Below are positions 8,507 to 44,490 of a DNA stretch of 64,000 nt, piece by piece. Position 1 is the first letter of the stretch. Every line of letters starts with the position of its first letter. Both the position numbers and the translations under genes were made by a program. The notes under the pieces were generated by a model. The model did no database searches. It saw nothing but the letters and a program-made list of their open reading frames with translations, and was not told where the DNA came from. Source of the DNA: Bacteroidales bacterium (lineage in GTDB: Bacteria; Bacteroidota; Bacteroidia; Bacteroidales; VadinHA17). The stretch lies in NCBI GenBank assembly GCA_049512815.1, contig JBEKWS010000008.1, positions 7,013 to 71,012 on the forward strand, read 5' to 3'.

Positions 8507-9508
8507 TTAATAATTATTGTCTTTCTTTCTTATCCGTAATATGATGTGAATGATTATGACACCGATTACAAGAACAAAAATAACCAAACTTATAAGGTTC
8601 AGATATTCATTTCTGTTTGCTCCAATAACATATGATGCATTTAAAATTATTCCGTTAAAGAATCCGTCGCGGCGTTGTTTTTTTGATTCAAATTTATAAA
8701 GTGAGGCCATAAGTATTGAGTTTTTCGAATGACATTCATTACAAAGTTTGATAGCTTCTTCTTTGGGTTTAATCAGATGCGATACAGGAACATTATTGTT
8801 GATTTGAGTGTGGCATTCGATGCATCGTACGTTTGCAAAATGTGAAGTCTGATTAGGCAGCCATTCATGCTTTTGAATAATATTTATCTCTTTTTTATCA
8901 CTCAGAAGCTGAAAACGGCTGAAGTCCGAGTGACAATTCAGACAGATAGCGTTGTCATAAGCAATAGTCTCCTTGAGATTATTATTGTTTCGGACCGAGA
9001 TCTTGTAAGTGTGAGGATTATGGCATTTCCAGCATGAGAATCCATCTCCCTCCATTTTAAAGTGAGTGCTCTTCTGATATTCAGCTTTTATCTCTTCAAA
9101 ATGATATTTCGCAAATTTCTCATCACCACTATGACAATCTATACAATTATACTTTTGCTCCATTCTCAGTTCTCCCGAATGAGGAAATTTTACATACTCT
9201 GCTGAATGACAGTCGGTACAACTGAAGCTCCTGTGATTTGATCTGTAAAATTCATTCTTATGTATAATCAATTCCGAACACATTTGGGCTTTGACCTGTC
9301 TTCCAAGAGTTGCATTAGAGTATTCATACTTCTCCTGTCCGTGACATTTAAAACAGCGGTTGTTATCAGCATCAAAAGGAGAGACAAAGGAAGTTGTGTC
9401 CAAAACTTTACCATTATCTGTTTTGAAACGGAAACTTCCGGCAGAAGGGAGAGAAATTAAATTGATAAAAGCATACAGGATAATTATCCGGAACATAAAT
9501 AATTTCAT
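8507..9508 (-). CDS. Heptahaem c-type cytochrome with a C-terminal membrane anchor
   Basis: Seven CxxCH sites (CFKCH, CTDCH, CIDCH, CWKCH, CLNCH, CIECH, CNECH). N-terminal signal and a C-terminal TM segment LISLVIFVLVIGVIIIHIIL. Confidence 0.85.
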   Translation of the reverse strand: MKLFMFRIIILYAFINLISLPSAGSFRFKTDNGKVLDTTSFVSPFDADNNRCFKCHGQEKYEYSNATLGRQVKAQMCSELIIHKNEFYRSNHRSFSCTDCHSAEYVKFPHSGELRMEQKYNCIDCHSGDEKFAKYHFEEIKAEYQKSTHFKMEGDGFSCWKCHNPHTYKISVRNNNNLKETIAYDNAICLNCHSDFSRFQLLSDKKEINIIQKHEWLPNQTSHFANVRCIECHTQINNNVPVSHLIKPKEEAIKLCNECHSKNSILMASLYKFESKKQRRDGFFNGIILNASYVIGANRNEYLNLISLVIFVLVIGVIIIHIILRIRKKDNNY

Positions 9509-9527
9509 TCCTGATTACTTCATTGAA

Positions 9528-10394
9528 TTAGAATCTGACATGAATATTAAACCCTATCAGCCATTGGCTTTTTTTGAAATCATTCGTGTTGAACACGAGA
9601 TTCCGCTGATTAATAATCTGATCATAGTTGGTTACAAATATCTGGAAAGAATGTGTTGCCGTACCAATTTCCCAACCGAGCGAGAGATTTGGTTTTGGCT
9701 GTACAGCAATACTTTGCTTTGTAAGTAGTTGATCATATTCAATTATCAGCGATTGGGAACCGAATAAATTTGCACGTGCTCCTGCTGAAAGTCCTATGTT
9801 AAGATTCTTATAACCTGCTGTAGAATCTATATTTTGAGGTACGGAATTGAAATATGCCAGCGAAGGAGCTATCTGAACCGAAAACATATTGTTTATTTTG
9901 CGGGCCACAATCAGTTGAGTGAAATAAGATAACCTGTGAATTTGCCTGAAGCTTTCGGCTGGTCCGAAATCTCCTGCCTGTTGTAAATTAACTACGATAT
10001 TGCCATAATATGAAAGTGAAACAGGCATTTTATTATCTTCTGTCTGCCGCAGGATAAGATACTTCCACTGAATATCCTGAAGCTGATAATTCTTTGTTGT
10101 CCCGGCGCCGATCATTAACCTGTCGGTGATGCCATAATTAAGACCTATCCGTGTATTTGCCGAACCATAAATGCCAAAAAGATCATGATAATTTTCAATC
10201 GGGCTGAATCTATGACTTATTTCCAGTTCCAGACCGCCTTTATATGGTGTTTCAACTGTATTAATATCAATAAGAGTGGTCGTTCCAAAAGTAAACCGAA
10301 CAGGTTTTGATGTTACCTGTTTCAGAGTATCTTCCTGCGCGAACAAAGGAGAAATGAATAACGATAAAGTTAAAAAGATAAAAAAGTTTTTCAT
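9528..10394 (-). CDS. Putative outer-membrane beta-barrel protein (resembles DUF5777-type barrels)
   Basis: Signal peptide ending LFAQ, an alternating amphipathic strand pattern and a C-terminal aromatic residue (HVRF). Confidence 0.55.
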   Translation of the reverse strand: MKNFFIFLTLSLFISPLFAQEDTLKQVTSKPVRFTFGTTTLIDINTVETPYKGGLELEISHRFSPIENYHDLFGIYGSANTRIGLNYGITDRLMIGAGTTKNYQLQDIQWKYLILRQTEDNKMPVSLSYYGNIVVNLQQAGDFGPAESFRQIHRLSYFTQLIVARKINNMFSVQIAPSLAYFNSVPQNIDSTAGYKNLNIGLSAGARANLFGSQSLIIEYDQLLTKQSIAVQPKPNLSLGWEIGTATHSFQIFVTNYDQIINQRNLVFNTNDFKKSQWLIGFNIHVRF

Positions 10395-11043: not shown

Positions 11044-12822
11044 TCAGAACTTATAAGCATTATCTTCAATAAGTTTATCAGCGATACGGCGCCTTGCATC
11101 TTTAACATTTACACATTCTACCCGTGAAAGATTTTCAATTGCCTTAATAAGTATCGGGCAGTTTTCCGGTGTTGAGAATGAGCCGATTGCATCAAAAGCC
11201 GATTTTCTGATGATGCTGGCTGTGTCAGACACATTAACGTCAAGCATATCTTTATAAAGTGATACATTCCCTTTCAGTGTTGACATTTTTTCAACTCTTA
11301 GAGCAAGTGATTCAGAGACATATGTTTCCATAATCATTTCAGCTATATTGTTGAGAACCTCCTGTTCTTTTATCAGGTCCTTATCAAATCGTTTTGTTGC
11401 ACCGTGAATACAAATCAGGATAGCCTTTTTGAAGTTCTTGATATATCTTGTTTTTTCCTGAAAATAACTTTCACCTGCTTTTTTACTATCGGTAATAATA
11501 CTTATACCTGAGTAGAGTTTCTCGGCTTCTCCGAACAGGTCAAATTCACCTTTCATTGCACGTTTCAAAGCTGTATCAACAACAAGCAGGCGGTTTATTT
11601 CATTTGTACCTTCAAAAATTCTGTTGATCCTGGAATCACGATAACCTCTTTCCACTGCCATTTCAGCTGAGTATCCCATACCGCCGTGTATCTGAACTGC
11701 CTCATCAGAAACATAATCAAGCATCTCAGATCCCACCACTTTCAGAATTGCTGCCTCAACAGCATAGTGACTGATTGCTTCAATTGAAGCCCTGCCATAA
11801 TCACCGCAATCAACTGTCAGTCTCTTCATCAGAATATCGATATCAAAACTTACTCTGTAAACAGCTGATTCTGAGGCAAAAAGACGAATAACCTGTTCAG
11901 CCATTTTGTGCTTTAATGCTCCAAATGTTGAAATTAAAACTCCAAACTGTTTTCTCTCGTTGGCATATTTAACCGAATCATTAATCGCTTTTTTAGCAGC
12001 TCCAATGACATTAGCTCCAAGCTTAAGACGACCCATGTGAAGGATACTAAGAGCAATCCTGAACCCTTCTCCTCTTTTACCAAGCAGGTTTTCTACCGGC
12101 ACTTTAACATCATTAAAGTAGATCTGGGCCGTTGAAGATCCTTTAATTCCCATTTTGTGCTCATCGGGACCCACAACTACACCCGGGTACTTACTTTCTA
12201 CAATAAACGCACTAAGGACCCTGTCGGTATCAATTTTTGCAAATACCACCAGTGTATCTGCAAATCCGGCGTTTGTGATCCACATCTTCTGTCCGTTAAG
12301 GATATAGAATTTGCCGTCTTCACTTAATTTAGCATTAGTTTTCCCTGAGTTTGCATCGCTTCCGGCACCCGGTTCGGTAAGACAGTATGCTCCGATAAAT
12401 TCACCGGAAGCCAGTTTTGTAACGTAACGCTCCCTTTGATCCTTGTTTCCATAGTACATGATTGGTAAGGTACCAATACCACAATGTGCCATATATGCTA
12501 CGGAAAATGAATAGCCGGCACCTGTTGTTTCAGCCACAAGCATCTGTGTAATGAATGATTGTCCGAATCCGCCAAACTCTTCCGGAATTGATATTCCCAT
12601 TAATCCAAGTTCACCTGACTTTTTAAGTATACTTTTCATCAGTTCCCTGTCACTCTTCTCAACTTTTTCCAGATTGGGATATACTTCAGTTTCAAGAAAG
12701 TCGCGGCATGTCTGAGCAATCATTTTTTGTTCTTCATTGAATTCCTCCGGAATGAAAATATCTTTCGATTCAACTTCGTTTACAAGAAATTCACCGCTTT
12801 TCAAAAGTTTATTGTTTTCCAT
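11044..12822 (-). CDS. Long-form acyl-CoA dehydrogenase (592 aa)
   Basis: Hallmarks of the acyl-CoA dehydrogenase family (CLTEPGAGSD, QIHGGMGY, IFEGTNEI). Last gene of the etf operon. Confidence 0.9.
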   Translation of the reverse strand: MENNKLLKSGEFLVNEVESKDIFIPEEFNEEQKMIAQTCRDFLETEVYPNLEKVEKSDRELMKSILKKSGELGLMGISIPEEFGGFGQSFITQMLVAETTGAGYSFSVAYMAHCGIGTLPIMYYGNKDQRERYVTKLASGEFIGAYCLTEPGAGSDANSGKTNAKLSEDGKFYILNGQKMWITNAGFADTLVVFAKIDTDRVLSAFIVESKYPGVVVGPDEHKMGIKGSSTAQIYFNDVKVPVENLLGKRGEGFRIALSILHMGRLKLGANVIGAAKKAINDSVKYANERKQFGVLISTFGALKHKMAEQVIRLFASESAVYRVSFDIDILMKRLTVDCGDYGRASIEAISHYAVEAAILKVVGSEMLDYVSDEAVQIHGGMGYSAEMAVERGYRDSRINRIFEGTNEINRLLVVDTALKRAMKGEFDLFGEAEKLYSGISIITDSKKAGESYFQEKTRYIKNFKKAILICIHGATKRFDKDLIKEQEVLNNIAEMIMETYVSESLALRVEKMSTLKGNVSLYKDMLDVNVSDTASIIRKSAFDAIGSFSTPENCPILIKAIENLSRVECVNVKDARRRIADKLIEDNAYKF

Positions 12823-12849
12823 CGTTTTCAGATAATTATTTGGACTAAT

Positions 12850-13644
12850 CTATAATTCAAGTGATTGTACAATTAGTTCTGCAATGTCAAGATTTTTGAT
12901 CACTTCTTCTCTGTTTTTATACTTAAGACCATCAGTCAGCATTGTCATACAAAACGGACAGGCAGTTGCAATTACCGTAGCATCAGTCTTAAGGGCATCT
13001 TCAGTTCTCTCTATAAAAATTTCCTTGTTGCCTTTTTCTGCCTCCTTAAACATTTGAGCACCACCGCCTCCACAACATAATGCGAAACTTTTGTTTCTGT
13101 GCATCTCAACCAGATTACCAGTCAGCTTTTTAAGTATAATTCGTGGTTCGTCATATATATCATTTGCTCTTCCGAGATAACATGGATCGTGATAAGTAAT
13201 TGATATATTATTTAATGAAACAGAATCAATTTTTAAATTACCTTCTTCGATATTCCTGTTAAGAAACTGAAGGTAGTTAATAACTTCGTATTCACCGCCG
13301 AGATCAGGATATTCGTTCTTAAAGATGTTGAAACAATGCGGGCAAATGGTAATGATCCTTTTCACATCGTACATTCTGAATATCTCAATTAACCGCAGCG
13401 CCTGCATCTGAAAAAGCATTTCGTTGCCGGCACGTCTTGCAGGATCACCGTTGCAAGTCTCTTCTTTCCCAAGAACAGCATAACTGACATTCAGATACAT
13501 GAGGATTTTCGCAAATGCCCTGACAACCTTTTTGTACCTGTCATCAAAAGCTCCTGCACAACCTACCCAGAATAGGTATTCAGGCTTTTCTCCTCGTGCA
13601 AAAAGGTCTGCCATAACAGGGACTTCAATTTTCCGGGTTTCCAT
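12850..13644 (-). CDS. (Fe-S)-binding protein with CCG domains (HdrD/GlpC-like C-terminal half of an ETF-linked oxidoreductase)
   Basis: Two cysteine-rich CCG-type motifs, including ALCCGGGG. Confidence 0.8.
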   Translation of the reverse strand: METRKIEVPVMADLFARGEKPEYLFWVGCAGAFDDRYKKVVRAFAKILMYLNVSYAVLGKEETCNGDPARRAGNEMLFQMQALRLIEIFRMYDVKRIITICPHCFNIFKNEYPDLGGEYEVINYLQFLNRNIEEGNLKIDSVSLNNISITYHDPCYLGRANDIYDEPRIILKKLTGNLVEMHRNKSFALCCGGGGAQMFKEAEKGNKEIFIERTEDALKTDATVIATACPFCMTMLTDGLKYKNREEVIKNLDIAELIVQSLEL

Positions 13645-32925: not shown

Positions 32926-33348
32926 ATGTATCAGAAAGATTACATCCTCCGTATGATTGAGATGCTAGGTGACCTTATTGCCGGTATCCTGGGACTGATC
33001 AAAAAAGGTGAGTTTGAACATGCTGAAGAAAAACTTGAGAACCTCTATAACAAAATGCTTAAAGAGGATTCTGCCTTCTTCAGGGATATCCCTGAGAACG
33101 ACCTGACAGACAGGCTGCTTCATCAGCATAATTATACCAATGGCCATCTGGAGGTATTGGCAGAGCTCTTCAATGCTGAGGCTGAGCTGTGCCTGGCACA
33201 GGGTAATAAACCCGGAAGTCTTGAGTATTCACACAGGTCATTGAGGCTGTTTGAGTTTATCGATGCGGAATACAGGGTCTTCTCCCGGGAGCGTATTTAC
33301 AAGATGGAGGCAATACGGGAAAGAATAAGAACACTGGAAACCGTTTAG
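32926..33348 (+). CDS. Hypothetical protein (about 140 aa, helical)
   Basis: The track ORF 32761-33348 has an N-terminus that translates the repeat island. The first plausible start is the ATG at 32926 (MYQKDYILRM). Confidence 0.45.
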   Translation: MYQKDYILRMIEMLGDLIAGILGLIKKGEFEHAEEKLENLYNKMLKEDSAFFRDIPENDLTDRLLHQHNYTNGHLEVLAELFNAEAELCLAQGNKPGSLEYSHRSLRLFEFIDAEYRVFSRERIYKMEAIRERIRTLETV

Positions 33349-33423
33349 AGCTGAGCGTTCTGTGTTCAATAAGTCGCATCTTCATAAGTTTCTTTGTTGA
33401 AAAAGATTTTCTTCAGACTTAAC

Positions 33424-34908
33424 TTAATCTTTAGAATTTAATTTTAACATTATCTCTCTAAAGCTTTCTAATCCCGCTTCCATGTTTTCAATAATTTCAG
33501 CTGCCAGAATATCAGGATCAGGCAGGTTGTCGAGATCGGCCAGTGATTTATCTTTTATCCAGGTTATATCAAGACTGGTTTTATCCCGACTGATAATTTC
33601 CTCATAAGTGAATTTTCTCCATTGCCCTTCCGGATTAGTATCTGAATTAAATGTCTCTTTTCGAAGTTGCCTGTTGACCGGATTATAAATTTTGATGAAA
33701 TCTTTAAGGTCATCCATCTTAAGTGGATTTTTCTTAAGGGTGTGGTGAATATTTGTCCGGTAATCATAAATCCAGACTTCTCTGGTCCATGGCTCCCTGG
33801 AAGCCGGTTTGGCATCAAAAAATATGACATTCGCTTTCACACCCTGGGCATAAAATATTCCGGTCGGTAACCTCAGAATAGTATGCAGATCTGTGGTTTC
33901 CAGTATTTTTTTTCTTACGGTTTCTCCGGCGCCTCCCTCAAACAGAACATTATCAGGTACAACAACTGCTGCCTTCCCAGTAGTTTTCAGCATGGTACGT
34001 ATATGTTGTACAAAATTTAATTGCTTGTTACTTGTTGTTGCCCAGAAATCCTGACGATTGTAAGTCAGGTCTTCTTTCTCTTGTTCCCCTTCCTCATTTG
34101 TGAATGTCATGCTGCTTTTCTTTCCGAAAGGGGGATTAGTAAGTACATAATCAAACCTCATCCCGTTATCGGCAACGAGGGAATCGTTTGGAGATATTAC
34201 ATTTTCACTTTCAATATCTCCAATGTTATGAAGAAAGAGGTTCATAAGACACAGTCTTCTTGTGTTGGCAACTATCTCGTTGCCGAAGAAGGTCTTGTAT
34301 TTTAGGGATTGCTTTTGCTCAATGTTAAGTGAATGATTGGCGATCAGATTATCATATGATGCAAGGAAAAAGCCACCGGTTCCACAGGCAGGATCAGCAA
34401 TGGTTTTTTCGGGTTGAAGGTTTAAACATTCTACCATCACTTTTATAAGTGCTCGCGGAGTAAAATATTGCCCGGCCCCGCTCTTGGTATCCTCGGCATT
34501 CTTCTCGAGAAGCCCCTCATAAATCTGACCCTTGATATCTGTTCCCATCGTGCTCCACCTCTCTTTATCTATCAGATCGATCAGTTTGAACAACTTGGCC
34601 GGATCCTGAATTTTATTCTGGCTCTTGGTAAAAACCTGACCAAGAATTCCTTTTTGCTGTGATAATTCCCTGAGTAATACTGAATAATGTAGCTCAAGAG
34701 CTGCACCCGTTTTTGAAGTCAAGCTTTCCCAGTTGTATTCTTTAGGAATAGGAAGTTTACGGTTATAAGGCGGCTTGCTGAATTCATCAGCAAGCTTAAG
34801 GAACAGCAGATAAGTCAGTTGTTCAAGATAATCGCCATAGCTTACACCATCATCGCGAAGGGTGTTGCAGAAATTCCAGACTTTGCTGATTATTGTGGAT
34901 GTATTCAT
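33424..34908 (-). CDS. hsdM: Type I restriction-modification system methyltransferase subunit
   Basis: HsdM N-terminal domain (WNFCNTLRDDG), motif I DPACGTGGF and catalytic NPPFG. Confidence 0.9.
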   Translation of the reverse strand: MNTSTIISKVWNFCNTLRDDGVSYGDYLEQLTYLLFLKLADEFSKPPYNRKLPIPKEYNWESLTSKTGAALELHYSVLLRELSQQKGILGQVFTKSQNKIQDPAKLFKLIDLIDKERWSTMGTDIKGQIYEGLLEKNAEDTKSGAGQYFTPRALIKVMVECLNLQPEKTIADPACGTGGFFLASYDNLIANHSLNIEQKQSLKYKTFFGNEIVANTRRLCLMNLFLHNIGDIESENVISPNDSLVADNGMRFDYVLTNPPFGKKSSMTFTNEEGEQEKEDLTYNRQDFWATTSNKQLNFVQHIRTMLKTTGKAAVVVPDNVLFEGGAGETVRKKILETTDLHTILRLPTGIFYAQGVKANVIFFDAKPASREPWTREVWIYDYRTNIHHTLKKNPLKMDDLKDFIKIYNPVNRQLRKETFNSDTNPEGQWRKFTYEEIISRDKTSLDITWIKDKSLADLDNLPDPDILAAEIIENMEAGLESFREIMLKLNSKD

Positions 34909-34953
34909 TTTATAATTTTTATTTTCTTTCGGAAGAATTTTTCAAACTTTTCC

Positions 34954-35607
34954 AGCTCCGGAGGAGCGGTACATTAATAGTAAATTTAGTTATAAAAATA
35001 CCGAGCTCCGAAGGAGCGGGAAATTAATAGAAGAATTAATCATATCAATGTTGAGCTCCGGAGGAGCGATATCTTTAAATATCATCAAACAGATATTCGG
35101 TTTTATAGACTATATTATTATAATTAAGCAAATTAACATATTCCTCCTTGAAACTCTTCATCTTATGATGTTCTTCCTGGTTTTTAATATAATTGATTAT
35201 TGTATCCAATTCGGCAGGATTACACGTGAAGGCTCCGAATCCATGTTGCCATTCAAAACGTCCTTGAACCCATCTCTGTTCGTTGATAAAACGGGATGAG
35301 TTGGCTTTTATATCTCTGATCAGATCAGATAAAGCTATAGCGGGTTTAATGCTCAACAGAAGGTGAATATGATCGGGCATGCCATTGATTATCATTAGTT
35401 TCTGATCATTATTAGTAACGATACCTGTTATATATCTGTATAGATCATCTTTCCATCGCAGGGAGATGATGTTTTCTCTGCCTCTGACGGCAAAGACTGT
35501 ATGAATGAATAATTTTGTATATGTATCGGCCATGAGGTGTCGCTCCTCCGGAGCTCATAATATTTTATATATCAATAGTTCTATTAATATTTCGCTCCTC
35601 CGGAGCT
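34954..35607 (-). mobile_element. REPtron: a RAYT transposase gene flanked by inverted REP hairpin units
   Basis: Three forward units, (g)agctccg(g/a)aggagcg, at 34954-34968, 35003-35018 and 35053-35068. Two inverted units, cgctcctccggagct, at 35541-35556 and 35593-35607. Three of the five units carry the attaatag tail. Confidence 0.7.
35075..35533 (-). CDS. REP-associated tyrosine transposase (IS200/IS605 Y1 family, RAYT)
   Basis: MADTYTKLFIHTVFAVRGRE ... HIHLLLS (HUH motif) ... a C-terminal Tyr region. 152 aa. Confidence 0.8.
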   Translation of the reverse strand: MADTYTKLFIHTVFAVRGRENIISLRWKDDLYRYITGIVTNNDQKLMIINGMPDHIHLLLSIKPAIALSDLIRDIKANSSRFINEQRWVQGRFEWQHGFGAFTCNPAELDTIINYIKNQEEHHKMKSFKEEYVNLLNYNNIVYKTEYLFDDI

Positions 35608-36955
35608 AATTATAGTTCTCATCCGGTTTAACTAGTTTCCCTTCAAACGCCTGTTTAAGAATCGATTGCCGTAGCGATTCGGATTGTTGCAGGCAGTTTT
35701 CAATTGTCTCCTCCATCTTATCGCAGACTGAAAAACGGGTTTCGATCTCAGAAATAATATGTTGTTGTTCTTCAATTGAAGGAATCAACATTTCAATTTC
35801 CTTGAAATCTTTGATCCCGACTAAATTTGGCATTGCAGTTCCTTGTGATTGATCAAAGATTTTCTTTTGAAAAAAAGCTGTCCTAAAGTGCTGGATAAAG
35901 TATTTGTTTAGGATAATATTATTTCTTAGGCGAATTCTTAGCAACGCCTGATTAATAATGCCTGCTTTCGCATCTTTTGGGATTTCACATATTCTCCCCA
36001 GGGTTACTCCAGAGCAACTTATAATTAAATCATTAGGAATTACTTTGAAATTTTTTAATTCATTGTATTTATCCTCATTAATAAAATACTTTCCTCTGTA
36101 AGGATCATTATTTATTGCATTTCCCTGTTCATAAACCTTATAACCAACCGGTACAAAAAAATCTTTCTTGATAGCGCTCCCAAAGGGTCCTCGTCTTAAT
36201 CCCTCTTTATCGAGTGTGATGTCTTTCAATTTATAAGATTTCCATCCTACTGGCAATTCTTTTCCAGACAGGTCGTGGCCTTTCGTTAAAGTGAATCTAC
36301 CCTCAAAAGCCCACTTTAAAACTGACTGTCGATAGGTTTTCAATTGCAGCTTTACCATTCCGAGTTGCTGTTTACCTTTACCCAACTCGCTGAATAACTC
36401 TTCGATCTTGGATACTATTTGTTGTTGCTCCAAGAGAGGGGGAAGTGGAACATTTATCTTTATGTAGTCAGGGAATTTGAGATTTCTAAGATTATTACTT
36501 CCTCCCTGGTATTTAATTATTTCTCCTGTAGAGTAGAAAAATCGTAAATAATAGTTTAAAAACTTTGAATCATTTTCTTTTAAAGGTCTAATAACTCGTA
36601 AAAAATTGGTGCAAATCTTGGGTATATCTTTCTCAAAACTCAAAGTTGCTTTATCAATTAAGACAGTTCTACCAACAGGCTGCTCTGGACCGCCTCCAGA
36701 AATCTCAACAAGAATATCTCCAACTTCGAGTTGTCTGGTAATGATTGATGATTTTTTAATTTTCCGAAGAGAAGCTGTCATACCTTTTGATATTTCCCAG
36801 TTCCGTATTTCGGAACCTCTTATGCAATAAGCCAATTCATATCCAGGGTCAGAGTAAGTTATTTCTTTTCCCCAATCACCACCAATAGCTAGTTGAATCA
36901 ACTCCCTAAGACTTTTTATTTCCCAATGCTTTGGAATTGTATCTTTATCAATCAT
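35606..36955 (-). CDS. hsdS: Type I R-M specificity subunit. Start taken at the ATG at 36955, 4 nt after the upstream stop.
   Basis: Two target-recognition domains separated by conserved helices (LPPLLEQQQIVSKIEELF and IPSIEEQQHIISEIETRF; ...LKWAFEGRF and ...LKQAFEGKL). Confidence 0.85.
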   Translation of the reverse strand: MIDKDTIPKHWEIKSLRELIQLAIGGDWGKEITYSDPGYELAYCIRGSEIRNWEISKGMTASLRKIKKSSIITRQLEVGDILVEISGGGPEQPVGRTVLIDKATLSFEKDIPKICTNFLRVIRPLKENDSKFLNYYLRFFYSTGEIIKYQGGSNNLRNLKFPDYIKINVPLPPLLEQQQIVSKIEELFSELGKGKQQLGMVKLQLKTYRQSVLKWAFEGRFTLTKGHDLSGKELPVGWKSYKLKDITLDKEGLRRGPFGSAIKKDFFVPVGYKVYEQGNAINNDPYRGKYFINEDKYNELKNFKVIPNDLIISCSGVTLGRICEIPKDAKAGIINQALLRIRLRNNIILNKYFIQHFRTAFFQKKIFDQSQGTAMPNLVGIKDFKEIEMLIPSIEEQQHIISEIETRFSVCDKMEETIENCLQQSESLRQSILKQAFEGKLVKPDENYN

Positions 36956-36959
36956 TATA

Positions 36960-37685
36960 TTAAATTGAACTAACCTTTTGAGGTATTTCTGTGTATTGTT
37001 TCCCTTGAAGTAATTTTCCGTTTTTCTTTTTATTTGTGCCACCCCATTGTTTAAAATAAAAGGTAACATTTGCATTCCGACATTGATCTTTAATATCCAG
37101 GACCCATTCTTCTTTTACAGGGCGCGGTGTCCTGCCGCTTTCTCCACCAACAATAACCCAGTCAATATCTGCAAGATTCATACCGGAGATCTCAGTTAGT
37201 AATGGTTCGCAACTTAGGAATTTGATTTTTGCTCCGGTTTGTCTCAGTAAATCAATGCGTTTTGTAACGGTATTATCTTCAACCGTAACTCCCATCCAGA
37301 TATTATGTGTCCATTCAAGATAACCTTCTTTATCATAATATAAGAGCAGATCAGCTCGCTTTGTAAGTATTTGAAAAACATGGTGAGGGTTCTCCTTCAT
37401 TATCTTAAAGACATCTATTATATATTGTACAGGTATATCTTTATGGAAAAGATCGCTCATTGAGTTAACAAAGATCACTCTCGGTTTCTTCCATGTATAA
37501 GGTTCCTTTAGTGTTTCAGGATGCAAAGTCAGATTGAAACCATTCAGGTATTTCTCCTGTCCCATCGCCTGTAGCCTGCGGGTCATAACTTCGGCATAAC
37601 AGTTCTTACAACCGGCAGAAATCTTTGTACAACCTGTTATCGGATTCCAGGTCGATTCGGTCCATTCTATTTTGGTTTTAGCCAT
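36960..37685 (-). CDS. DUF5131 / phage Gp37-Gp68 family three-Cys-motif protein
   Basis: N-terminus MAKTKIEWTESTWNPITGCTKISAGCKNCYAE (a CX6CX2C triad) and C-terminal WVIVGGESG...FYFKQWGG. Family recognised from memory (PF07505). Confidence 0.75.
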   Translation of the reverse strand: MAKTKIEWTESTWNPITGCTKISAGCKNCYAEVMTRRLQAMGQEKYLNGFNLTLHPETLKEPYTWKKPRVIFVNSMSDLFHKDIPVQYIIDVFKIMKENPHHVFQILTKRADLLLYYDKEGYLEWTHNIWMGVTVEDNTVTKRIDLLRQTGAKIKFLSCEPLLTEISGMNLADIDWVIVGGESGRTPRPVKEEWVLDIKDQCRNANVTFYFKQWGGTNKKKNGKLLQGKQYTEIPQKVSSI

Positions 37686-37687
37686 AT

Positions 37688-38560
37688 TTAAAAATCTAAA
37701 GATAGTTGTTGTTTAACTCTCTGCTGAACCTTAGTAAAGTAATCCTCCCCTCTGGTATGCTTTGAATAGAAAGAAAGATAATATAACGGAAGATTTTTTT
37801 CATTTGACCTTATCTGGTGCATATGTTTTTCAGGCTTGTATCCAAGTTTACACATTTGCGACTGATACTGATCTGCGAGAAATTTTACGAAATCTTTTCT
37901 ATAAATACAACCATTCTGTTCAAATACCTCGCGCCAGCTTTCAAGCCCAAGATAATTTGCTATCCGCTGGTTTTCATCTTTCATATATTTCTCAAAATTC
38001 CTGTTAGCGTCCATGTGTAAAGCCTGTAGTATAAGAAAATCCATAAGGTTTTTACCGAGCTTTGCTATTGTAGAAAAACTTAGATCTAAAGAGAAAGGGT
38101 CAACGAAACAGAAAGGTAAAAGTGTGTTGCCTTTTTTGAAACCTGGAATTGATTTAAGAACAGCTTCTATGCTTTGATTGCTATCACCTAATAGTAGATC
38201 AAAGTTCAGATGATTATAATCTCTTTCAACTCTCTTTTTAAGAGCTTCAAAACGCACAGGGTCCTGTTCACATAAAATATATTTTGTGAAGGGATTAGGA
38301 ACTGACATTGCAATAAGAGCCGAAGATTTATAGACTATCTTAGTTTCCTTTATCCTTGAATATCCGGCTCCGGCAAAAAGATCAATATAAATAAGTTGAT
38401 CCCATTTTCTTTTCATACCTGAAGTAAAAATATCGCAATAACTTCCTGCAAGTTTGTATTTTTCAAGCGACCACGATCTTACTTCCGGAGTAAAAAGACC
38501 ATCATCAGGTACTTTCATCAATGGGTCAAAATGGATAATATTTTGACTGGGTATCCTCAT
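37688..38560 (-). CDS. tcmP: Three-Cys-motif partner protein TcmP-like (Rossmann / methyltransferase-like fold)
   Basis: EVRSWSLEKYKL..., then IDLFAGAG (SAM motif-I-like), ILCEQD and FCFVDPF. Always-adjacent partner of PF07505 as I recall TIGR04474. Confidence 0.65.
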   Translation of the reverse strand: MRIPSQNIIHFDPLMKVPDDGLFTPEVRSWSLEKYKLAGSYCDIFTSGMKRKWDQLIYIDLFAGAGYSRIKETKIVYKSSALIAMSVPNPFTKYILCEQDPVRFEALKKRVERDYNHLNFDLLLGDSNQSIEAVLKSIPGFKKGNTLLPFCFVDPFSLDLSFSTIAKLGKNLMDFLILQALHMDANRNFEKYMKDENQRIANYLGLESWREVFEQNGCIYRKDFVKFLADQYQSQMCKLGYKPEKHMHQIRSNEKNLPLYYLSFYSKHTRGEDYFTKVQQRVKQQLSLDF

Positions 38561-38561
38561 T

Positions 38562-39671
38562 TTAGTTTTTATATAAGTCGGAAATTATCTCCAGTACATT
38601 TTTATTATAAAGAGGTTGGTTTCCATAAGAGACCTTACCATCGTGAGCAAGCTTTCCCACAATAATAGCCGGATGAACTTCATATTTTTCAGCACACTCT
38701 TCAACCTTTGAAGTTGTCAGATAACCGATATAAGGTTCGAGAAACGAAATGATTTCATTGTGATTCAGATGCTTTGATGCAAGTTCATTTGCTTCATTCT
38801 CAAGTTTGTCGATTTGCCCGTTTTTCAGATCGTCAAGAATGAAAGGGGTTTTTTCATTCAGATGTTTTAAGATATGTGCTATTTCATGTGCAACCGTAAA
38901 CCAGAAATTATCGATCCTGTGATACCTGCCGGTATAGACAATTACAGGATTTTCACCAGAATAAAATGCTGCGCCATCGAGATATGTTTTTAACAGGTGA
39001 GGGAGAACGAAGAAGATTACCCCGACCATGTTTAGTTCCTTAATAAAGATGTTTATACCATCAGGTTTAATTGTATACGAATGAAGATCGTCATATAATG
39101 CTATAAGTTTTTCAAGATTATATTTGCTAACCTTTTTTTCGGCAGCAACAATGCAGGCTTTCTGATACCAGGTTAGAGCATAAGAGGCATTGAATTGATT
39201 AAATGCCTCTGACTTTCTGGTAAGGCATGGTAACTGTTTATCCAAAACTGAAAAATCAAGCTTTTTCCAACCCCAAAATTCTAAAACCTGATTTTTTAAG
39301 TCATCTAAATCTCTAAAAGGATTCAACCACCCCTTTTTTACCATATCATTAACAGGCATCCTTTCATAAATAGTGCCTTTTAAATCTGCTGCAATTTCTT
39401 TTTCCGATCTTTCCTGTTCAAGCCATAACCTGTAGCCGGTATCGATGTTAATCCAGTATTGTGCCGATGTATCAAAAACCTCACCCAGTAATCTTGCAAT
39501 TTCGAGAGTTATGGCCTGCTTGTTTTTGAGTATCTTGTTTAAATGTTTTTCTGATACTCCAATAACATCAGCCAGATCTTCCTGTATCCAATGACGTAAG
39601 TCCATCTGTTCCTGAATAAAATATCCCGCACCAAATTTCTTTGCTGCTCTTAGTTGTGTCGTCTGTACCAT
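38562..39671 (-). CDS. XRE-family HTH protein fused to an ImmA/IrrE (M78) metallopeptidase domain (HigA-like antitoxin or regulator)
   Basis: N-terminal HTH (LADVIGVSEKHLNKILKNKQ) and C-terminal HEIAH zinc motif. Confidence 0.8.
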   Translation of the reverse strand: MVQTTQLRAAKKFGAGYFIQEQMDLRHWIQEDLADVIGVSEKHLNKILKNKQAITLEIARLLGEVFDTSAQYWINIDTGYRLWLEQERSEKEIAADLKGTIYERMPVNDMVKKGWLNPFRDLDDLKNQVLEFWGWKKLDFSVLDKQLPCLTRKSEAFNQFNASYALTWYQKACIVAAEKKVSKYNLEKLIALYDDLHSYTIKPDGINIFIKELNMVGVIFFVLPHLLKTYLDGAAFYSGENPVIVYTGRYHRIDNFWFTVAHEIAHILKHLNEKTPFILDDLKNGQIDKLENEANELASKHLNHNEIISFLEPYIGYLTTSKVEECAEKYEVHPAIIVGKLAHDGKVSYGNQPLYNKNVLEIISDLYKN

Positions 39672-39683
39672 AATTCCTGATTG

Positions 39684-39995
39684 TTAATCTCCATAATGAG
39701 ATGAGATCACTACAATGATGAATTCTCCAACTGTATTATCGATGTTTTTCCATTCAATTTCCATTTCGAGTCTGTACTTTCCTGTAAGCCTCATTGAATA
39801 ACGCTTCTTAAATCCTCTTAGTTTTTCAAATTTGAGTCCACTGTCTTTCCAAAAATCATGGATACTGGTTGCTGATTCAATCTTCTGAACTGTTGCAAAG
39901 AATTTGTCAATTACGGTTTCAGGAAGCCTGAGTTTTTTTGAACTCCCTGTTTCGTAAAGTTTAATTAACTCTTTATCATTTATTTGGACATTCAA
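39684..39995 (-). CDS. HigB-like (RelE/ParE superfamily) toxin with a TTG start
   Basis: 103 aa with the pattern ...FEKLRGFKKRYSMRLTGKYRLEMEI...SSHYGD, typical of killer-protein HigB. Directly upstream of the HTH gene. Confidence 0.65.
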   Translation of the reverse strand: MNVQINDKELIKLYETGSSKKLRLPETVIDKFFATVQKIESATSIHDFWKDSGLKFEKLRGFKKRYSMRLTGKYRLEMEIEWKNIDNTVGEFIIVVISSHYGD

Positions 39996-40010
39996 TGATT
40001 AAATGTTTTA

Positions 40011-40045
40011 CAAATATACACCTAATTGGTTAAAATGCAAATATA
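40011..40045 (-). promoter_or_regulatory. Two exact TATATTTG (TAnnTTTG) -7 boxes upstream of the HigB-like gene
   Basis: Plus-strand caaatata at 40011-40018 and 40038-40045. Confidence 0.4.
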
Positions 40046-40048
40046 TAT

Positions 40049-40065
40049 TTTACCTGTCAGGTAAA
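40049..40065. promoter_or_regulatory. Perfect 8+1+8 palindrome tttacctg-t-caggtaaa, a candidate operator for the HTH protein
   Basis: Read directly. It lies just upstream of the -7 boxes in the 90-nt gap between hsdR and the toxin gene. Confidence 0.45.
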
Positions 40066-40085
40066 TATGTGATATAATATTCGAA

Positions 40086-42863
40086 TTATGCAGCTAGCAC
40101 CTCATTAAGTTCGGCTATGATTAATTCACAATCTTCTCCAAACAACTGCCACATCTTACCTTTTCCCCCGAATGCATTGAAAGGAGTATAATCGAGATCA
40201 TCATACTCAATATGAATGCTTGTGGCAATATGATCTTTTATCATTCTCAGCCAACTCATTTGTGATTCACTGAATTTAAGTGTCCCGGCTTGTTTTTTAA
40301 ATACCCACTCCCGGAAATTTTTATCAACTGTTTTGTCATAACTGGTAAGATCCTTGTCAATACCTGTTATTTTCCTGAGTAACGAGATAAGTGCGATCAT
40401 TTCATTTTTTGGTGATCCTGTTACTTTTTCAATCTGGCTGTATGCCTGCCAGATATTCATAGGAGCCAGAAGAGGTTTATCTGAAATCAGATGATCAACA
40501 AGTTCCTTCATCATTTTGAAAGTAATCTCACGTCTTCTGAGCGGTTGATTATAAAATATCTGCAACGCAACAATTTCATTCTTATGAGTTTCGATCCAGC
40601 TTTTGAAACTTTCTACCAGCTCCGCAGCATTTGATTTATTGTCCTTATCCCATCCTGCAAAAATGATCTTGTCGCGGTTAATGTCATCGATTACCTGTTC
40701 ATGTGCTTTTCTGACATTTTCAATGTAAGTATTGAGTTCACCAGTAAAGATCGAAGCGGCAGTTTCAATTAATTCATTATGTCTGCGGGTTAATTCATTC
40801 TCTTTATCAACTGGAGGAGAGGTGGCAAATTCCGATTCAACTTTTAACCTTACCCCTTCAATAATATCAGGATCATAAGCATTCAGAAGTTCTTTTATAG
40901 TCTGATTTATGGTTTTACCTTTGGCTTTCTCTGCAAAAAGATTTTTTTCTTTTTCTGTAATTTGTTTTTCAAGTCTTATTAGTCTGTTAGCAATCGATGA
41001 AAAAAGATCATCATCACGCACCCCCACTGCAATTGCGCCCAGCAAATCCTTCAGCGGAATTCCTGGTTTCTTTTCAAGAGGACGACTGTCGGTCTTCAGG
41101 CTTTTGGTAACACCAACAGAATCAACAATTACAAAATGGTCTTTCGTATATTTAGCTGAAGGGCTGACTTTCCTCAGATCATCTAGCGAGATTGTCCGGG
41201 TTCCCCGACCTTTCATCTGTTCAAAATAATTCCGGCTTTTCACATCTCGCATAAACAGAAGACATTCGAGAGGTTTCACATCGGTACCGGTAGCAATCAT
41301 ATCTACTGTAACTGCTATCCTCGGATGATAGGCGTTTCGAAATTGTGCAAGAACAGATTTGGTATCTTCTTCAGATTTATAAGTCAGCTTTTTACAAAAC
41401 CTGTTCTCTTCGGCAAACTCCTCCCTGACTATTTGAATAATGTCATCCGCGTGTGAATCAGTCTTTGCAAAAATCAGAGTTTTAGGCACTTCAAATTCGC
41501 CATTTTCTGAGAATCTCTCAGGAAACATGTCGGGAAGATGATCTTTAAAGTTTTTGATAATTGTTCTGATCTGATTAGGATTAACAACTTCATCGTCAAG
41601 TTTCTTATTTGAATAGACCAGATCCTCATCCAGCTGATCCCAACGCTTTTTTCGGGTCAGTTTTTCACGATGGTCAACAAATTCTCCTTTCCAGATTTTT
41701 GAGCCCTTCTTAGTAATATCAGTTTCAATGAGGAAAATATTATAGCCGACATTAACCCCATCGACAACAGCCTGCTGGTGAGTGTATTCACTTACAATAT
41801 TTTGTCTGAAATATCCGAATGTCCTGTTATCGGGTGTTGCAGTCAGTCCGACCTGGAAAGAATCGAAATATTCGAGAACCTGTTTCCAGAGGTTATAAAT
41901 ACTTCGGTGGCATTCATCAATAACCACAAAATCAAAAAACTCTACCGGCAGTTTTGCATTATAGACAACAGGAACCGGTTCGCGTTTTTGCCAACTAATT
42001 TCTCCCGGATTTGTTTCTTCAGCTTCTTCAGGAAGTTCCTCTCCTTTTAATATAGAGTATAATCGTTGTATAGTACTGATACAAACCTGGCTGTCAGAAG
42101 CTACGTAACTGCTTCTTAACCTCTGTACATTATAGAGTTCCGTGAACTTACGGTTGTCGTCTGTTGGCGTATAAGCCATAAATTCCTGTTCTGCCTGTTC
42201 ACCCAGGTTACGTGTGTCGACAAGGAACAGTATCCGCCTGGCGCCACTGAATTTAAGTAGCCTGTAAATTGAGGTTATGGCTGTATATGTCTTGCCTGAT
42301 CCGGTAGCCATCTGGATCAGAGCGCGAGGTCTGCTCTCTTTAAAAGATTTTTCCAGATTCCGGATCGCAACAATCTGGCAGTCTCTTAATCCTGTTGTTG
42401 TTAGTAACGGTAAGTCCAATAATCTTTTTCTGAGAGTCTTCTCTTTTTTATTCCACTCACGGAATGTTTCCGGTTTGTGAAAAGTAAAGGTTGGTCTCGA
42501 TCGCGGTTTTGGATCGCGGTAATCTGTAAAACGAGTTAGTTCACCTGTACTTTCATATACAAAAGGTAGAGGATCATTATTCAGATATTTGAGTTTGCTT
42601 TCCGCGTAATCCCTGGATTGTTCTTCATAATCTGTAAGACGGAAACCTTCCTCTACTTTTTTTGCTTCAATTATTCCTACAGGTTGTTTATCGACGAAAA
42701 GTAAATAGTCAGCAGGTCCGGTATCCGTTTGGTATTCCCTTATAGCTATACCGATCCCGGCATTCAGATTAATCTCTTTCTTATTCTGAATTGTCCAACC
42801 ACAGGCAATCAATTGCTTGTCAATATTATCACGAGCTATTTGTTCGGGGTTTTGGTTGGGCAT
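40086..42863 (-). CDS. hsdR: Type I restriction endonuclease subunit R (EcoEI-like, 925 aa)
   Basis: N-terminal nuclease domain, helicase motif I MATGSGKT, motif II DECHR, and a long C-terminal helical domain. Confidence 0.9.
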   Translation of the reverse strand: MPNQNPEQIARDNIDKQLIACGWTIQNKKEINLNAGIGIAIREYQTDTGPADYLLFVDKQPVGIIEAKKVEEGFRLTDYEEQSRDYAESKLKYLNNDPLPFVYESTGELTRFTDYRDPKPRSRPTFTFHKPETFREWNKKEKTLRKRLLDLPLLTTTGLRDCQIVAIRNLEKSFKESRPRALIQMATGSGKTYTAITSIYRLLKFSGARRILFLVDTRNLGEQAEQEFMAYTPTDDNRKFTELYNVQRLRSSYVASDSQVCISTIQRLYSILKGEELPEEAEETNPGEISWQKREPVPVVYNAKLPVEFFDFVVIDECHRSIYNLWKQVLEYFDSFQVGLTATPDNRTFGYFRQNIVSEYTHQQAVVDGVNVGYNIFLIETDITKKGSKIWKGEFVDHREKLTRKKRWDQLDEDLVYSNKKLDDEVVNPNQIRTIIKNFKDHLPDMFPERFSENGEFEVPKTLIFAKTDSHADDIIQIVREEFAEENRFCKKLTYKSEEDTKSVLAQFRNAYHPRIAVTVDMIATGTDVKPLECLLFMRDVKSRNYFEQMKGRGTRTISLDDLRKVSPSAKYTKDHFVIVDSVGVTKSLKTDSRPLEKKPGIPLKDLLGAIAVGVRDDDLFSSIANRLIRLEKQITEKEKNLFAEKAKGKTINQTIKELLNAYDPDIIEGVRLKVESEFATSPPVDKENELTRRHNELIETAASIFTGELNTYIENVRKAHEQVIDDINRDKIIFAGWDKDNKSNAAELVESFKSWIETHKNEIVALQIFYNQPLRRREITFKMMKELVDHLISDKPLLAPMNIWQAYSQIEKVTGSPKNEMIALISLLRKITGIDKDLTSYDKTVDKNFREWVFKKQAGTLKFSESQMSWLRMIKDHIATSIHIEYDDLDYTPFNAFGGKGKMWQLFGEDCELIIAELNEVLAA

Positions 42864-43014
42864 TGTTTAATTCAGGTCTGTATTAATCCGTTAAATTAAG
42901 CAAAATCATTTATATTTTTAAACCTTTCCAATGTTATCTACCTGGGCATACTCCTGCTACGAAGGTTATATGATTTAATACGGAAAGTAAAGTGTTTGTT
43001 ACCCGGGGATGGTT

Positions 43015-43235
43015 GGTTTACAGTTTGCGGTAGGCGTCTCACGACACACGACGCACGATGCAGGGTCTTGCGCTGCGTGCTGTCCTGCTCTCTTCTGTCG
43101 CTTGTCTTGAAGTCTTGGAGTCGTACAGTCTTATGATTATTTTGACTTTTGTATTTTGCATTTTATTACCCCGGAGTTAACTGAGCATCATGGAGTCAGA
43201 TCACCTCTTCTCCTAATTTCCTCTTCGTCCTCGAA
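43015..43235. repeat. GC-rich degenerate tandem-motif island (gtcttg / acgac motifs)
   Basis: It shares a 19-mer with 32752-32770 and a 17-mer with 59163-59179. Confidence 0.7.
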
Positions 43236-43239
43236 ATAG

Positions 43240-44490
43240 TTACATTTTATTTTTAAGCGATAGCTTCCTGAGCGGTTTATTTACCTTAATAGTGGTAAAA
43301 ACAACTGCAAGTGTCATAATACCACCGAAAACTACCGAAGGCACCAGACCCATTAATTTAGCAGTAACCCCCGATTCGAATGCACCTAACTCGTTCGATG
43401 ATCCTATAAATATGCTGTTTACAGATGCAACCCGGCCGCGCATATCATCGGGTGTAAATAGCTGGAGAATGGTTCCTCTGATCACAACACTTATATTATC
43501 GAAAGCGCCACTTAGAATTAACAGCAAACCCGATAAAATGAAACTTGTAGAGAGTCCGAAACCAATCATACAAAGACCGAAACCAAGAACACAAATGAAA
43601 AGTATCTTCCCTGTTTCTCTCATAGGCGGACGGAACATTAGAACGAATGCCATAAGTGTAGCTCCTATGGCTGGACAGGCCCTGAGCAAACCCAGACCCT
43701 GGGGACCGACATGTAATATATCGGATGCAAATACAGGAAGCATCGCAACTGCTCCGCCAAACAGCACAGCAAACATATCGAGTGTAAAAGCTCCAAGCAA
43801 TTCCGGTGTTTTAAAAACAAAACTGATGCCGCTTCGTATCCTGGTAAATACACCTTCGGTTGTTTCAACAACTTTGTGCCTGCCGACTTTTATAAGCATT
43901 ATCATAAAGAACGACAAAGTATATAAACCTAATACCAGTGAATAGGCCGGCACTATTCCCCAAAAACCATAGACCAGTCCTCCGATTGCCGGTCCCATAA
44001 CAGCTGCCACCTGCCAGTTAGCACTGTTCCAGGTAGCCGCATTTGCATATAAATTCCTCGGAACAAGCTGGCCCAATAGTGCAACCTGGGCAGGGCCTAA
44101 TATTCCTCGTGCCAGTCCTGTTAAAAAGATAGTGACGAAAATTGGAATGATGCCGAATTTTTCGGAGAAATAAGTTGCATTTGCACTATAAATCAACAGA
44201 ATCACCGAACCCAGAATAAGTAAAAGAGTGGTATAATTAATAATCTTACGCCGGTTCCATAAATCGATATAATGCCCGGCAAAGAGAGATATACTTACCT
44301 GCGGAATCACCTCAGTCAGGCCAATAAACCCCAGCCAGAGCACATTGTTGGATAAAGCGTATATCTGCCATCCTACAATAACCGACTGCATAAGGGTGGC
44401 CATTGTCATAAAAATTCGATAGAACAGATAAAAACGGAAATTTTTAACGCGTACTGCTGCAAAAGCTTCACCGGAAAACCAGTACTTCAT
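43240..44490 (-). CDS. MFS transporter
   Basis: 12 predicted TM helices, 416 aa, and an MFS-like loop 2-3 motif (GHYIDLWNRRK). Confidence 0.8.
   Translation of the reverse strand: MKYWFSGEAFAAVRVKNFRFYLFYRIFMTMATLMQSVIVGWQIYALSNNVLWLGFIGLTEVIPQVSISLFAGHYIDLWNRRKIINYTTLLLILGSVILLIYSANATYFSEKFGIIPIFVTIFLTGLARGILGPAQVALLGQLVPRNLYANAATWNSANWQVAAVMGPAIGGLVYGFWGIVPAYSLVLGLYTLSFFMIMLIKVGRHKVVETTEGVFTRIRSGISFVFKTPELLGAFTLDMFAVLFGGAVAMLPVFASDILHVGPQGLGLLRACPAIGATLMAFVLMFRPPMRETGKILFICVLGFGLCMIGFGLSTSFILSGLLLILSGAFDNISVVIRGTILQLFTPDDMRGRVASVNSIFIGSSNELGAFESGVTAKLMGLVPSVVFGGIMTLAVVFTTIKVNKPLRKLSLKNKM

Follow-up and report, generated by a model that had tools for sequence, protein, structure and literature searches.

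A Type I restriction–modification locus carrying embedded cargo genes in a Bacteroidales genome

In a 64-kb window of a Bacteroidales contig (JBEKWS010000008.1), we examined a Type I restriction–modification (R-M) locus at 33424-42863, where positions follow the numbering of the window. A listing of its open reading frames (ORFs), together with profile searches of Pfam, NCBIfam and PADLOC, bore out the content and coordinates of the eight minus-strand genes proposed in a first-pass annotation of this DNA. Read along the minus strand, these are hsdR, a HigB-like gene, a gene that fuses a helix-turn-helix (HTH) domain to an M78 (ImmA/IrrE) peptidase domain (HTH–M78; the two together are called the HigB–ImmA pair), the genes for TcmP and DUF5131, hsdS, a Y1 transposase gene flanked by repetitive extragenic palindrome (REP) units, and hsdM (Table 1). 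The two larger gaps that had been described, 90 nt after hsdR (39996-40085) and 697 nt between hsdS and hsdM (34909-35605), are both exact. Between them, the HigB-like, HTH–M78, TcmP, DUF5131 and hsdS genes are spaced by 12, 1, 2 and 4 nt (with the hsdS start at 36955) and therefore form a tightly packed unit. All eight ORFs are full length and have their catalytic motifs by a motif check, so nothing points to decay, and the locus proteins are 98-100% identical across three independent metagenome assemblies.

The three hsd genes have the features expected of a Type I system. The hsdR product matches the Pfam families ResIII (8.9e-40) and EcoEI_R_C (2.7e-39), as well as HSDR_N and Helicase_C, and the PADLOC model REase_I (1.5e-48), and it contains a Walker A motif (GSGKT) and a DECH box; related loci have full-length orthologues of 60-86% identity upstream of their own hsdS and hsdM genes. 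The hsdM product matches Pfam N6_Mtase (2.8e-70) and HsdM_N and, over its full length, PADLOC MTase_I PDLC03026 (2.9e-191), has the motifs DPACGTG (motif I) and NPPF, and has orthologues of 75-94% identity in many phyla. The hsdS product has two stretches of Pfam Methylase_S and matches PADLOC Specificity_I (1.7e-65). Gene calls on identical metagenome contigs put its start at 36955, not at the longest-ORF start at 37075, so that hsdS begins 4 nt past the DUF5131 stop. HsdS is just 25-57% identical to its relatives per aligned segment, which fits expectation, because target-recognition domains (TRDs) are variable. With a helicase/nuclease HsdR, an HsdM that has both motif I and NPPF, and an HsdS with two TRDs, the locus is, as far as its sequence can tell, an intact Type I R-M system, and its family is widely transferred.

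Table 1. Features of the locus, in window positions except where another locus is named.
Feature	Position	Strand	Description
hsdR	40086..42863	-	925 aa, Type I restriction subunit (helicase/nuclease), EcoEI_R_C C-terminal domain
Promoter and putative operator of the HigB-like/HTH–M78 module	39996..40085	-	From sequence reading, motif scan and alignment
HigB/RelE-like small protein	39684..39995	-	103 aa, TTG start; first gene of the internal operon
HTH_3 + Peptidase_M78 fusion	38562..39671	-	369 aa, HigA/XRE-type HTH plus M78 (ImmA/IrrE) metallopeptidase
TcmP (three-Cys-motif partner protein)	37688..38560	-	290 aa, predicted class I SAM-methyltransferase fold
DUF5131 (Gp37/Gp68 family)	36960..37685	-	241 aa, radical-SAM-superfamily protein, CX6CX2C motif
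hsdS	35606..36955	-	449 aa, specificity subunit, two target-recognition domains
REP/RAYT element	34955..35606	-	Two REP units, Y1 gene, three inverted REP units
REP units upstream of the transposase	35606-35593, 35554-35541		GCTCCGGAGGAGCG
Y1 (IS200-like/RAYT) transposase	35533-35075	-	152 aa; Y1_Tnp 3.7e-26
Inverted REP units downstream of the transposase	35068-35055, 35018-35005, 34968-34955		GCTCCGGAGGAGCG
hsdM	33424..34908	-	494 aa, N6-adenine methyltransferase subunit; last gene of the locus
Other loci with REP-flanked Y1 transposases	L006:3100-4950, L007:7900-10010, L014:3227-3760 and 8400-10010, L064:8700-9430, L078:9050-10010, L083:3500-4140

We mapped the eight window proteins onto a family sample of 80 genome loci with HsdM 75-87% identical, and all comparisons together took in about 100 loci (numbered L001 and so on where they need to be told apart). 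The taxa sampled were Bacteroidota, Planctomycetota (Brocadia), Acidobacteriota, Ignavibacteria/Chlorobi, Desulfobacterota-type metagenome-assembled genomes (MAGs), Syntrophales/Smithella, Fibrobacter and Desulfitobacterium. The nearest relatives are Rikenella and Rikenellaceae MAGs, which together with the promoter type described below points to a Bacteroidota host. In 61 loci hsdR lies upstream on the same strand, the remaining contigs being cut short, and the order R→S→M on one strand is found in 57 of 57 informative loci, with no instance of another order. The gene order of the window had been read as atypical, but it is the invariant order of its family. That hsdS lies upstream of hsdM and apart from it is real; it is, however, the majority state, since co-oriented cargo occupies the S–M interval (slot 2) in 48 of the 57 loci. 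The R–S interval (slot 1) is filled in 36 of them, and in 20 loci hsdS either overlaps the end of hsdR or begins no more than 30 nt from its stop. Cargo is present in 53 of the 57 loci (93%), leaving four that are cargo-free, and 156 of 162 cargo ORFs (96%) are co-oriented with the hsd genes. This cargo is extremely diverse, as 177 ORFs of 80 aa or longer form 24 small clusters and 83 singletons, and by Pfam it is of defence type: AAA_21/AAA_15, Schlafen/AlbA_2 with HATPase_c_4, GmrSD and McrBC, and further PD-(D/E)XK nucleases, PIN_10 with DUF433, AbiC, Fic, RhuM, OLD-TOPRIM, Piwi and Y1 transposases. A Piwi-domain protein, a protein kinase, a KilA-N protein and a DpnII/MboI-type endonuclease were each seen once as slot-1 cargo.

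Identity of 75-87% for HsdM across phyla, set beside 25-57% for HsdS, indicates that horizontal transfer has been intense. The hsdR and hsdM genes, which are conserved and bracket the variable S gene and cargo, may serve as recombination anchors for cassette exchange. The cluster name “hsdRSM” also occurs in the streptococcal and staphylococcal literature, and we take it there as a name, without regard to the direction of transcription. On this basis, we consider it probable that the window holds an intact, cargo-carrying Type I system with the layout R→[slot 1]→S→[slot 2]→M, in which the slots act as landing pads, and that this system has taken up two modules in slot 1 and, later, a REP/Y1 element in slot 2.

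The four cargo genes of slot 1 had been treated as a single unit, but they resolve into two separable modules, each of which is found in relatives without the other. The HigB–ImmA pair lies at the R|S junction of at least seven related loci. It is found directly before hsdS, with no TcmP–DUF5131, in L005 and in the decayed L096; in L094 it is followed by a KAP NTPase and then hsdS, in L030 it lies in slot 2, and in L095 it stands by itself in an unrelated chromosomal context. Conversely, TcmP–DUF5131 lies directly before hsdS without HigB–ImmA in L008, L025, L026, L031 and L067, and outside any R-M system, also without HigB–ImmA, among L086-L092. The full arrangement of the window, minus the transposase, recurs in L004, L084/L085 and L093 with different chromosomal flanks.

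The first of these modules resembles a toxin–antitoxin (TA) pair. The HigB-like protein matches Pfam HigB-like_toxin at 1.4e-5 and 25.9 bits, just below the gathering score of 27, and its TTG start is kept in relatives; among its orthologues, those of L084 and L085 have an unmarked match to the same family, and those of L094, L095 and L096 have matches flagged as weak alone. The HTH–M78 protein matches Pfam HTH_3 (1.1e-8) and Peptidase_M78 (2.2e-9), has a HEIAH zinc motif at residue 262, and aligns over residues 19-345 with positions 64-377 of the 402 in the PADLOC profile PD-Lambda-2_B (2.9e-47). Its HTH matches solved HigA-type antitoxins, it reaches 41.6 bits with the HigA model TIGR02607 (cutoff 47.7), and it also has weak PADLOC matches to CapP (3e-6) and CapH. 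The toxin-first gene order of the pair fits HigBA. By analogy, we infer that the pair works like components A and B of PD-λ-2, or like the RelE–Xre–COG2856 class, but we do not call it a PD-λ-2 system. In L093 and L096 the pair is intact and hsdR is frameshifted (L093:3162-5941; L096:3797-6566), and in L096 hsdM is frameshifted as well (11743-13194); these frameshifts are due either to errors in assembly or to decay of the R-M genes around a module that has been retained.

It could be argued that all four cargo genes make up one PD-λ-2-like system, in which TcmP–DUF5131 replaces component C as effector or accessory. The strong PD-Lambda-2_B match is in line with this, as is the requirement of PD-λ-2 for a third component in defence; the four genes are also contiguous, with gaps of 1-12 nt, they occur together in L004, L084/L085 and L093, and an HTH–M78 gene flanks TcmP–DUF5131 in L088 too. 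However, each pair occurs many times without the other, neither TcmP nor DUF5131 has similarity to PD-Lambda-2_C, and PADLOC treats TcmP-like>>DUF5131 as a self-contained two-gene candidate. We regard a single four-gene system as quite improbable, and prefer to see two modules that share one slot.

The second module is predicted to combine a methyltransferase-fold protein with a radical-SAM enzyme. TcmP matches TIGR04474 (2.4e-35) and PADLOC PDC-M41A (1.3e-20) and no Pfam family. Its AlphaFold model (pLDDT 82, pTM 0.83) has its best PDB fold matches in RlmJ/DUF519, Trm1 and METTL16 (E ~1e-5, TM 0.46-0.51), and these fold neighbours are RNA m6A/m2G methyltransferases. In the motif I sequence DLFAGAG of TcmP, five of seven residues are invariant and one is nearly so, and the D-P of a motif IV-like DP[FY] is invariant. 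DUF5131 matches its Pfam family at 1e-96 and both PADLOC PDC-M41B (2e-121) and PDC-M30B at ~1e-121, carries the motif CTKISAGCKNC at residue 19, and belongs to a family that has been listed as a radical S-adenosylmethionine (SAM) subgroup (PMC9477430). A PDB sequence search with TcmP and DUF5131 returned nothing informative. The two genes are adjacent and co-oriented with a 2-nt gap, which is the layout of PDC-M41. In the literature on the function of TcmP and DUF5131 we found annotation-level mentions alone and no experimental anti-phage test of the pair. Given the modelled fold of TcmP and the radical-SAM family of DUF5131, TcmP–DUF5131 is most likely a nucleic-acid-modifying or repair pair, and as regards defence it is a candidate only.

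The surroundings of the pair in other genomes are varied. At L086:7133-13995, homologues of ~70% identity lie behind LexA in an operon with DUF72, DUF8156 and a family-B DNA polymerase. A cluster at L088:1-10767, again with homologues of ~70% identity, comprises HTH–S24, UvrD/PD-(D/E)XK, an N6/N4 methyltransferase, a TnsA-like protein, TcmP, DUF5131 and HTH–M78. The L086 and L088 contexts hint at a role linked to DNA damage or to DNA modification. In L090 the pair adjoins an integrase, and in L091 and L092 it sits in defence islands. DUF5131 had only distant homologues in viral contigs, at 26-42% identity, the exception being a fragment of 39 residues at 72%, and TcmP was not detectable there with the window query. 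Where the pair is embedded in R-M loci (the window, L004, L008, L025, L026, L031, L067, L084 and L093), it was always observed in slot 1, DUF5131 directly preceding hsdS at gaps of ~0-45 nt, and among these cases it was never seen in the larger slot 2. Either common ancestry or a functional connection with HsdS could account for this position.

The 90-nt gap upstream of the HigB-like gene contains the promoter-like boxes and the palindrome that had been noted there, and an alignment of related loci shows that they are conserved. The inverted repeat TTTACC-N5-GGTAAA is found at 40065-40049, in one copy in the window, and the putative operator with both arms reads TTTACCTGACAGGTAAA. Downstream of it, an upstream -7-like box TATATTTG lies at 40045-40038, and its TTTG (40041-40038) doubles as the -33 element for a second -7 box TATATTTG at 40018-40011, with a spacing of 19 nt. 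This is the geometry of Bacteroidota-type promoters (-33 TTTG, 19 nt, -7 TAnnTTTG). Only two perfect copies of TAnnTTTG occur on the coding strand across 33000-43600 (10.6 kb), both of them in the 90-nt gap, where ~0.05 would be expected; across the window, the motif is ~4x enriched upstream of ORFs. In an alignment of the region upstream of the HigB-like gene in seven loci, the -33/-7 pair, the TTG start and the inverted repeat are all conserved, including in L084, L093, L004, L094 and the standalone L095. The latter, which has no R-M genes, has TTCACC/GGTGAA as its repeat arms, a compensatory change. As the boxes and the repeat are conserved even in this standalone pair, the element is the promoter and operator of the HigB–ImmA pair itself, imported with the module, and its design appears to be the usual one of an autoregulated TA-type operon.

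These features bear on how the locus may be transcribed. In the 90-nt gap after hsdR, a pattern scan found no terminator-like site and there is no significant RNA fold (z = -1.3), so that transcripts starting at the hsdR promoter are likely to continue into the cargo and hsdS. The regions upstream of hsdR in six loci do not align and share no conserved promoter, with start coordinates approximate for some of them. The proposal that hsdR is its own transcription unit is not supported, given the lack of a terminator or structure after it and the 20 relatives in which hsdS lies within 30 nt of, or overlaps, the hsdR stop. It had further been suggested that hsdS depends on the TA-type promoter. 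The connection itself stands, because hsdS lies 4 nt behind DUF5131 and a conserved promoter heads the cargo, so that transcription from the 90-nt gap must enter hsdS; dependence is nevertheless not required, since read-through from hsdR is likely. The gene spacing strongly suggests that hsdS is co-transcribed with the cargo genes, and after the transposase insertion hsdM would most simply be expressed by read-through, as in many relatives with ~2 kb of slot-2 cargo.

We therefore envisage two points of entry for RNA polymerase in the arrangement of landing pads favoured here. Transcription would enter from the hsdR promoter and from the internal HigB promoter, the second probably being autorepressed by the HTH–M78 protein at TTTACC-N5-GGTAAA, and both routes would give a polycistronic HigB–ImmA–TcmP–DUF5131–hsdS message. 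Ancestrally, this message would have run straight into hsdM, and it would now have to pass the REP/RAYT element (RAYT, REP-associated tyrosine transposase). Cutting by a Type I enzyme requires both M and S, so weak expression of M or S would lower both restriction and modification and would not be lethal. The R-M system and the two modules embedded in it, for which a role in defence is plausible, would then act as layered, largely independent defences.

The same promoter invites a different view, which builds on the XRE/ImmA control of specificity suggested in the first-pass annotation. Here the HTH–M78 protein would be a signal-responsive switch that, in the manner of ImmA/ImmR, IrrE/DdrO or CapP/CapH, is cleaved or inactivated when phages infect or DNA is damaged. 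The resulting derepression would increase HsdS (and HsdM) along with TcmP–DUF5131 and make specificity and stoichiometry inducible. Several facts are compatible with it: hsdS is fused to an operon headed by a putatively regulated promoter, the M78 zinc motif is intact, and the protein has the weak CapP (3e-6) and CapH matches mentioned above. HigB–ImmA is also kept at R|S across the sub-lineage as the cargo behind it changes, and its divergence tracks that of HsdM/HsdR, suggesting selection for retention. Elsewhere TcmP–DUF5131 lies behind LexA or beside HTH–S24 and HTH–M78 proteins, and there is a precedent in RptR of a Type I R-M/DarTG island (PMC12255303). On the other hand, no terminator isolates the operon from hsdR read-through. 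The promoter, operator and pair also occur standalone in L095 with nothing downstream, and thus first of all represent the autoregulation of the pair itself. Moreover, the HTH–peptidase of PD-λ-2 is itself the toxic effector and not merely a regulator. Finally, there is a single operator, with no second copy near hsdR or hsdM, which puts hsdR, and possibly hsdM after the RAYT insertion, beyond its reach. We consider such a switch unlikely, although it would be a new mode of R-M regulation if true. A more specific version, in which HigB–ImmA senses infection or DNA damage and its self-cleavage or titration derepresses the embedded effector, HsdS and HsdM, thereby shifting the ratio of methylase to nuclease, also seems doubtful to us; if correct, it would couple an inducible nucleic-acid-modifying module to a built-in alleviation or boost of restriction.

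Slot 2 of the window is occupied by the transposase and its repeats. There are five GCTCCGGAGGAGCG REP units, against 0.05 expected by chance, and none elsewhere in the 64-kb window; the first abuts the hsdS stop codon, and the REP flanks fold strongly (z -5.0 and -3.8). The transposase carries HIH at residue 55 and YIKNQ at residue 115, so that the traits of a RAYT, an HUH motif and a catalytic Tyr motif with inverted REP hairpins on both sides, are all present. In profile searches it scores 72.7 bits with the IS200 model NF033573 (cutoff 55), and with the RAYT model NF047646 it reaches 31.9 bits and does not pass the cutoff of 80. In the closest relatives L004, L084 and L093 the REP/RAYT element is absent and the S–M gap is 10-14 nt. 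From this it follows that the element is a secondary, lineage-specific insertion at the hsdS stop.

At least six other loci, spread over different phyla, also carry Y1 transposases with REP flanks (Table 1). These lie between hsdS and hsdM, or in one case between hsdR and hsdS, and always run in the same direction as the hsd genes. They share a common REP design, a GC-rich hairpin followed by an ..ATnTTnATAG-type linker, and differ in their stem sequences. We also considered whether the RAYT could be an ancestral passenger of the cassette; this was ruled out, as RAYT identities are incongruent with those of HsdM and the REP stems differ between loci. For example, L006 and L007 are 93% identical in HsdM and 58% in RAYT, and the RAYTs of L006 and L014 are 80% identical. 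This incongruence suggests repeated independent insertions into the same slot.

The presence of such an element raises the question of whether all of the cargo is selfish baggage, an addiction-type TA module and an IS200-like element with no role in defence or regulation, perhaps in an R-M system that is decaying. A REP-flanked Y1 transposase has indeed split S from M, hsdR and/or hsdM are frameshifted in L093 and L096, and TA modules are classic stabilisers. Nevertheless, the eight ORFs of the window are full length with their catalytic motifs and maintain 98-100% identity in three independent assemblies, and the family cargo is overwhelmingly of defence type and 96% co-oriented, which would be unexpected for random junk. 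In our judgement, baggage of this kind is a very improbable explanation.

Some results do weigh against the picture of landing pads filled by layered, largely independent defences. Across L093, L084, L004 and L094, the divergence amounts to identities of 94, 91, 87 and 80% for HsdM and 83, 79, 69 and 68% for ImmA, and this co-divergence of HigB–ImmA with the R-M sub-lineage hints at tighter functional integration than independent layers would suggest. One REP hairpin with a U-rich tail scores as terminator-like and lies upstream of hsdM, and a scan for TAnnTTTG found no consensus promoter upstream of either hsdR or hsdM. The PADLOC model PD-Lambda-2_A matches neither the HigB-like protein nor two of its orthologues at E-values up to 10, and PD-Lambda-2_C matches no protein of the locus. 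As the HigB-like match is itself below threshold, this leaves component B as the only link to PD-λ-2.

Apart from these genes, the neighbours of the locus are ordinary chromosomal genes that encode a major facilitator superfamily (MFS) transporter, a methyltransferase, sigma factors and a nitroreductase. Rfam and tRNA scans of the window gave no match. In the 376-nt region between the MFS gene and hsdR there is a GC-rich stretch at 43040-43135 on the minus strand, with short CGTG/GCA repeats (…gcacgcagcgcaagaccctgcatcgtgcgtcgtgtgtcgtgagacgcc…) and likewise without an Rfam match, which may mark the edge of an island or form a structured element.

The embedding of genes in Type I R-M systems has already been published, and the locus mainly confirms this biology. 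What it adds is a clean natural example of Type I R-M operons as scaffolds that collect and exchange defence modules. Also of note are the conserved Bacteroidota-type promoter and operator feeding hsdS, the candidate methyltransferase-fold/radical-SAM pair that occurs near LexA-, S24- and M78-type regulators, and the repeated co-oriented REP/RAYT insertions in the S–M slot.

Several characterized systems resemble parts of this locus. Makarova et al. are said to have defined, in 2009, a three-component TA class of the type RelE–Xre–COG2856. In the abortive-infection system PD-λ-2, toxicity resides in the HTH–peptidase and is neutralised by a HigB-like protein, and defence requires a third protein (Vassallo et al. 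2022, PMC9519451). The window shares with PD-λ-2 a HigB-like small protein followed by an Xre/HigA HTH fused to a metallopeptidase, with component B matched at 2.9e-47. It differs in that component C (P4-antitoxin-like) is missing and the PD-Lambda-2_A model is silent, and in the setting of the pair within an R-M operon, where unrelated cargo or hsdS itself comes next. In enteropathogenic Escherichia coli, RptR represses a Type I R-M/DarTG2 island in which hsdM rises 15-fold on infection (PMC12255303). Both that island and the window have a TA module embedded in a Type I R-M system and a palindrome-containing promoter, which in the former is controlled by a small repressor, drives hsd and is induced by infection. 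However, RptR is a separate small regulator that heads an M–S–DarTG–R arrangement, whereas the window has as its candidate regulator an HTH–M78 fusion, of putative function, whose gene lies inside an R–S–M locus.

Damage-responsive switches built from HTH and M78 proteins include ImmR/ImmA, DdrO/IrrE and CapH/CapP, in which repressor and peptidase are separate proteins. The window resembles these switches in that defence genes follow an XRE-type HTH and an M78 peptidase whose HExxH is intact, but here the HTH and M78 domains are fused and paired with a HigB-like protein. The slot-2 element can likewise be compared with REPtrons and IS200 elements, as it has a 152-aa HUH/Y1 transposase between inverted arrays of short GC-rich hairpins. 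Unlike REPtrons, it falls below the RAYT cutoff, has no dispersed REPs in the 64 kb, and resides inside a horizontally mobile R-M operon.

The classic embedded defence gene is PrrC in EcoprrI. Embedded genes are reported to be frequent in Type I R-M, BREX and DISARM, and 145 “PDC” candidates were derived from them (Payne et al., bioRxiv 10.1101/2024.01.29.577857). In the same work, two TcmP-like>>DUF5131 cassettes, with DUF5131 listed as family FAM_00989, gave rise to PDC-M41 and PDC-M30, with counts of 75 and 104 that we take as instances, and we did not find a description there of the specific family or gene order of the window. The locus agrees well with this guilt-by-embedding approach, as co-oriented and diverse defence genes are nested among its hsd genes and PDC-M41/PDC-M30 were themselves catalogued from embedded positions. 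What sets the scaffold of the window apart is its fixed R→S→M order with two slots, and the presence of cargo in 93% of the sampled members of its family.

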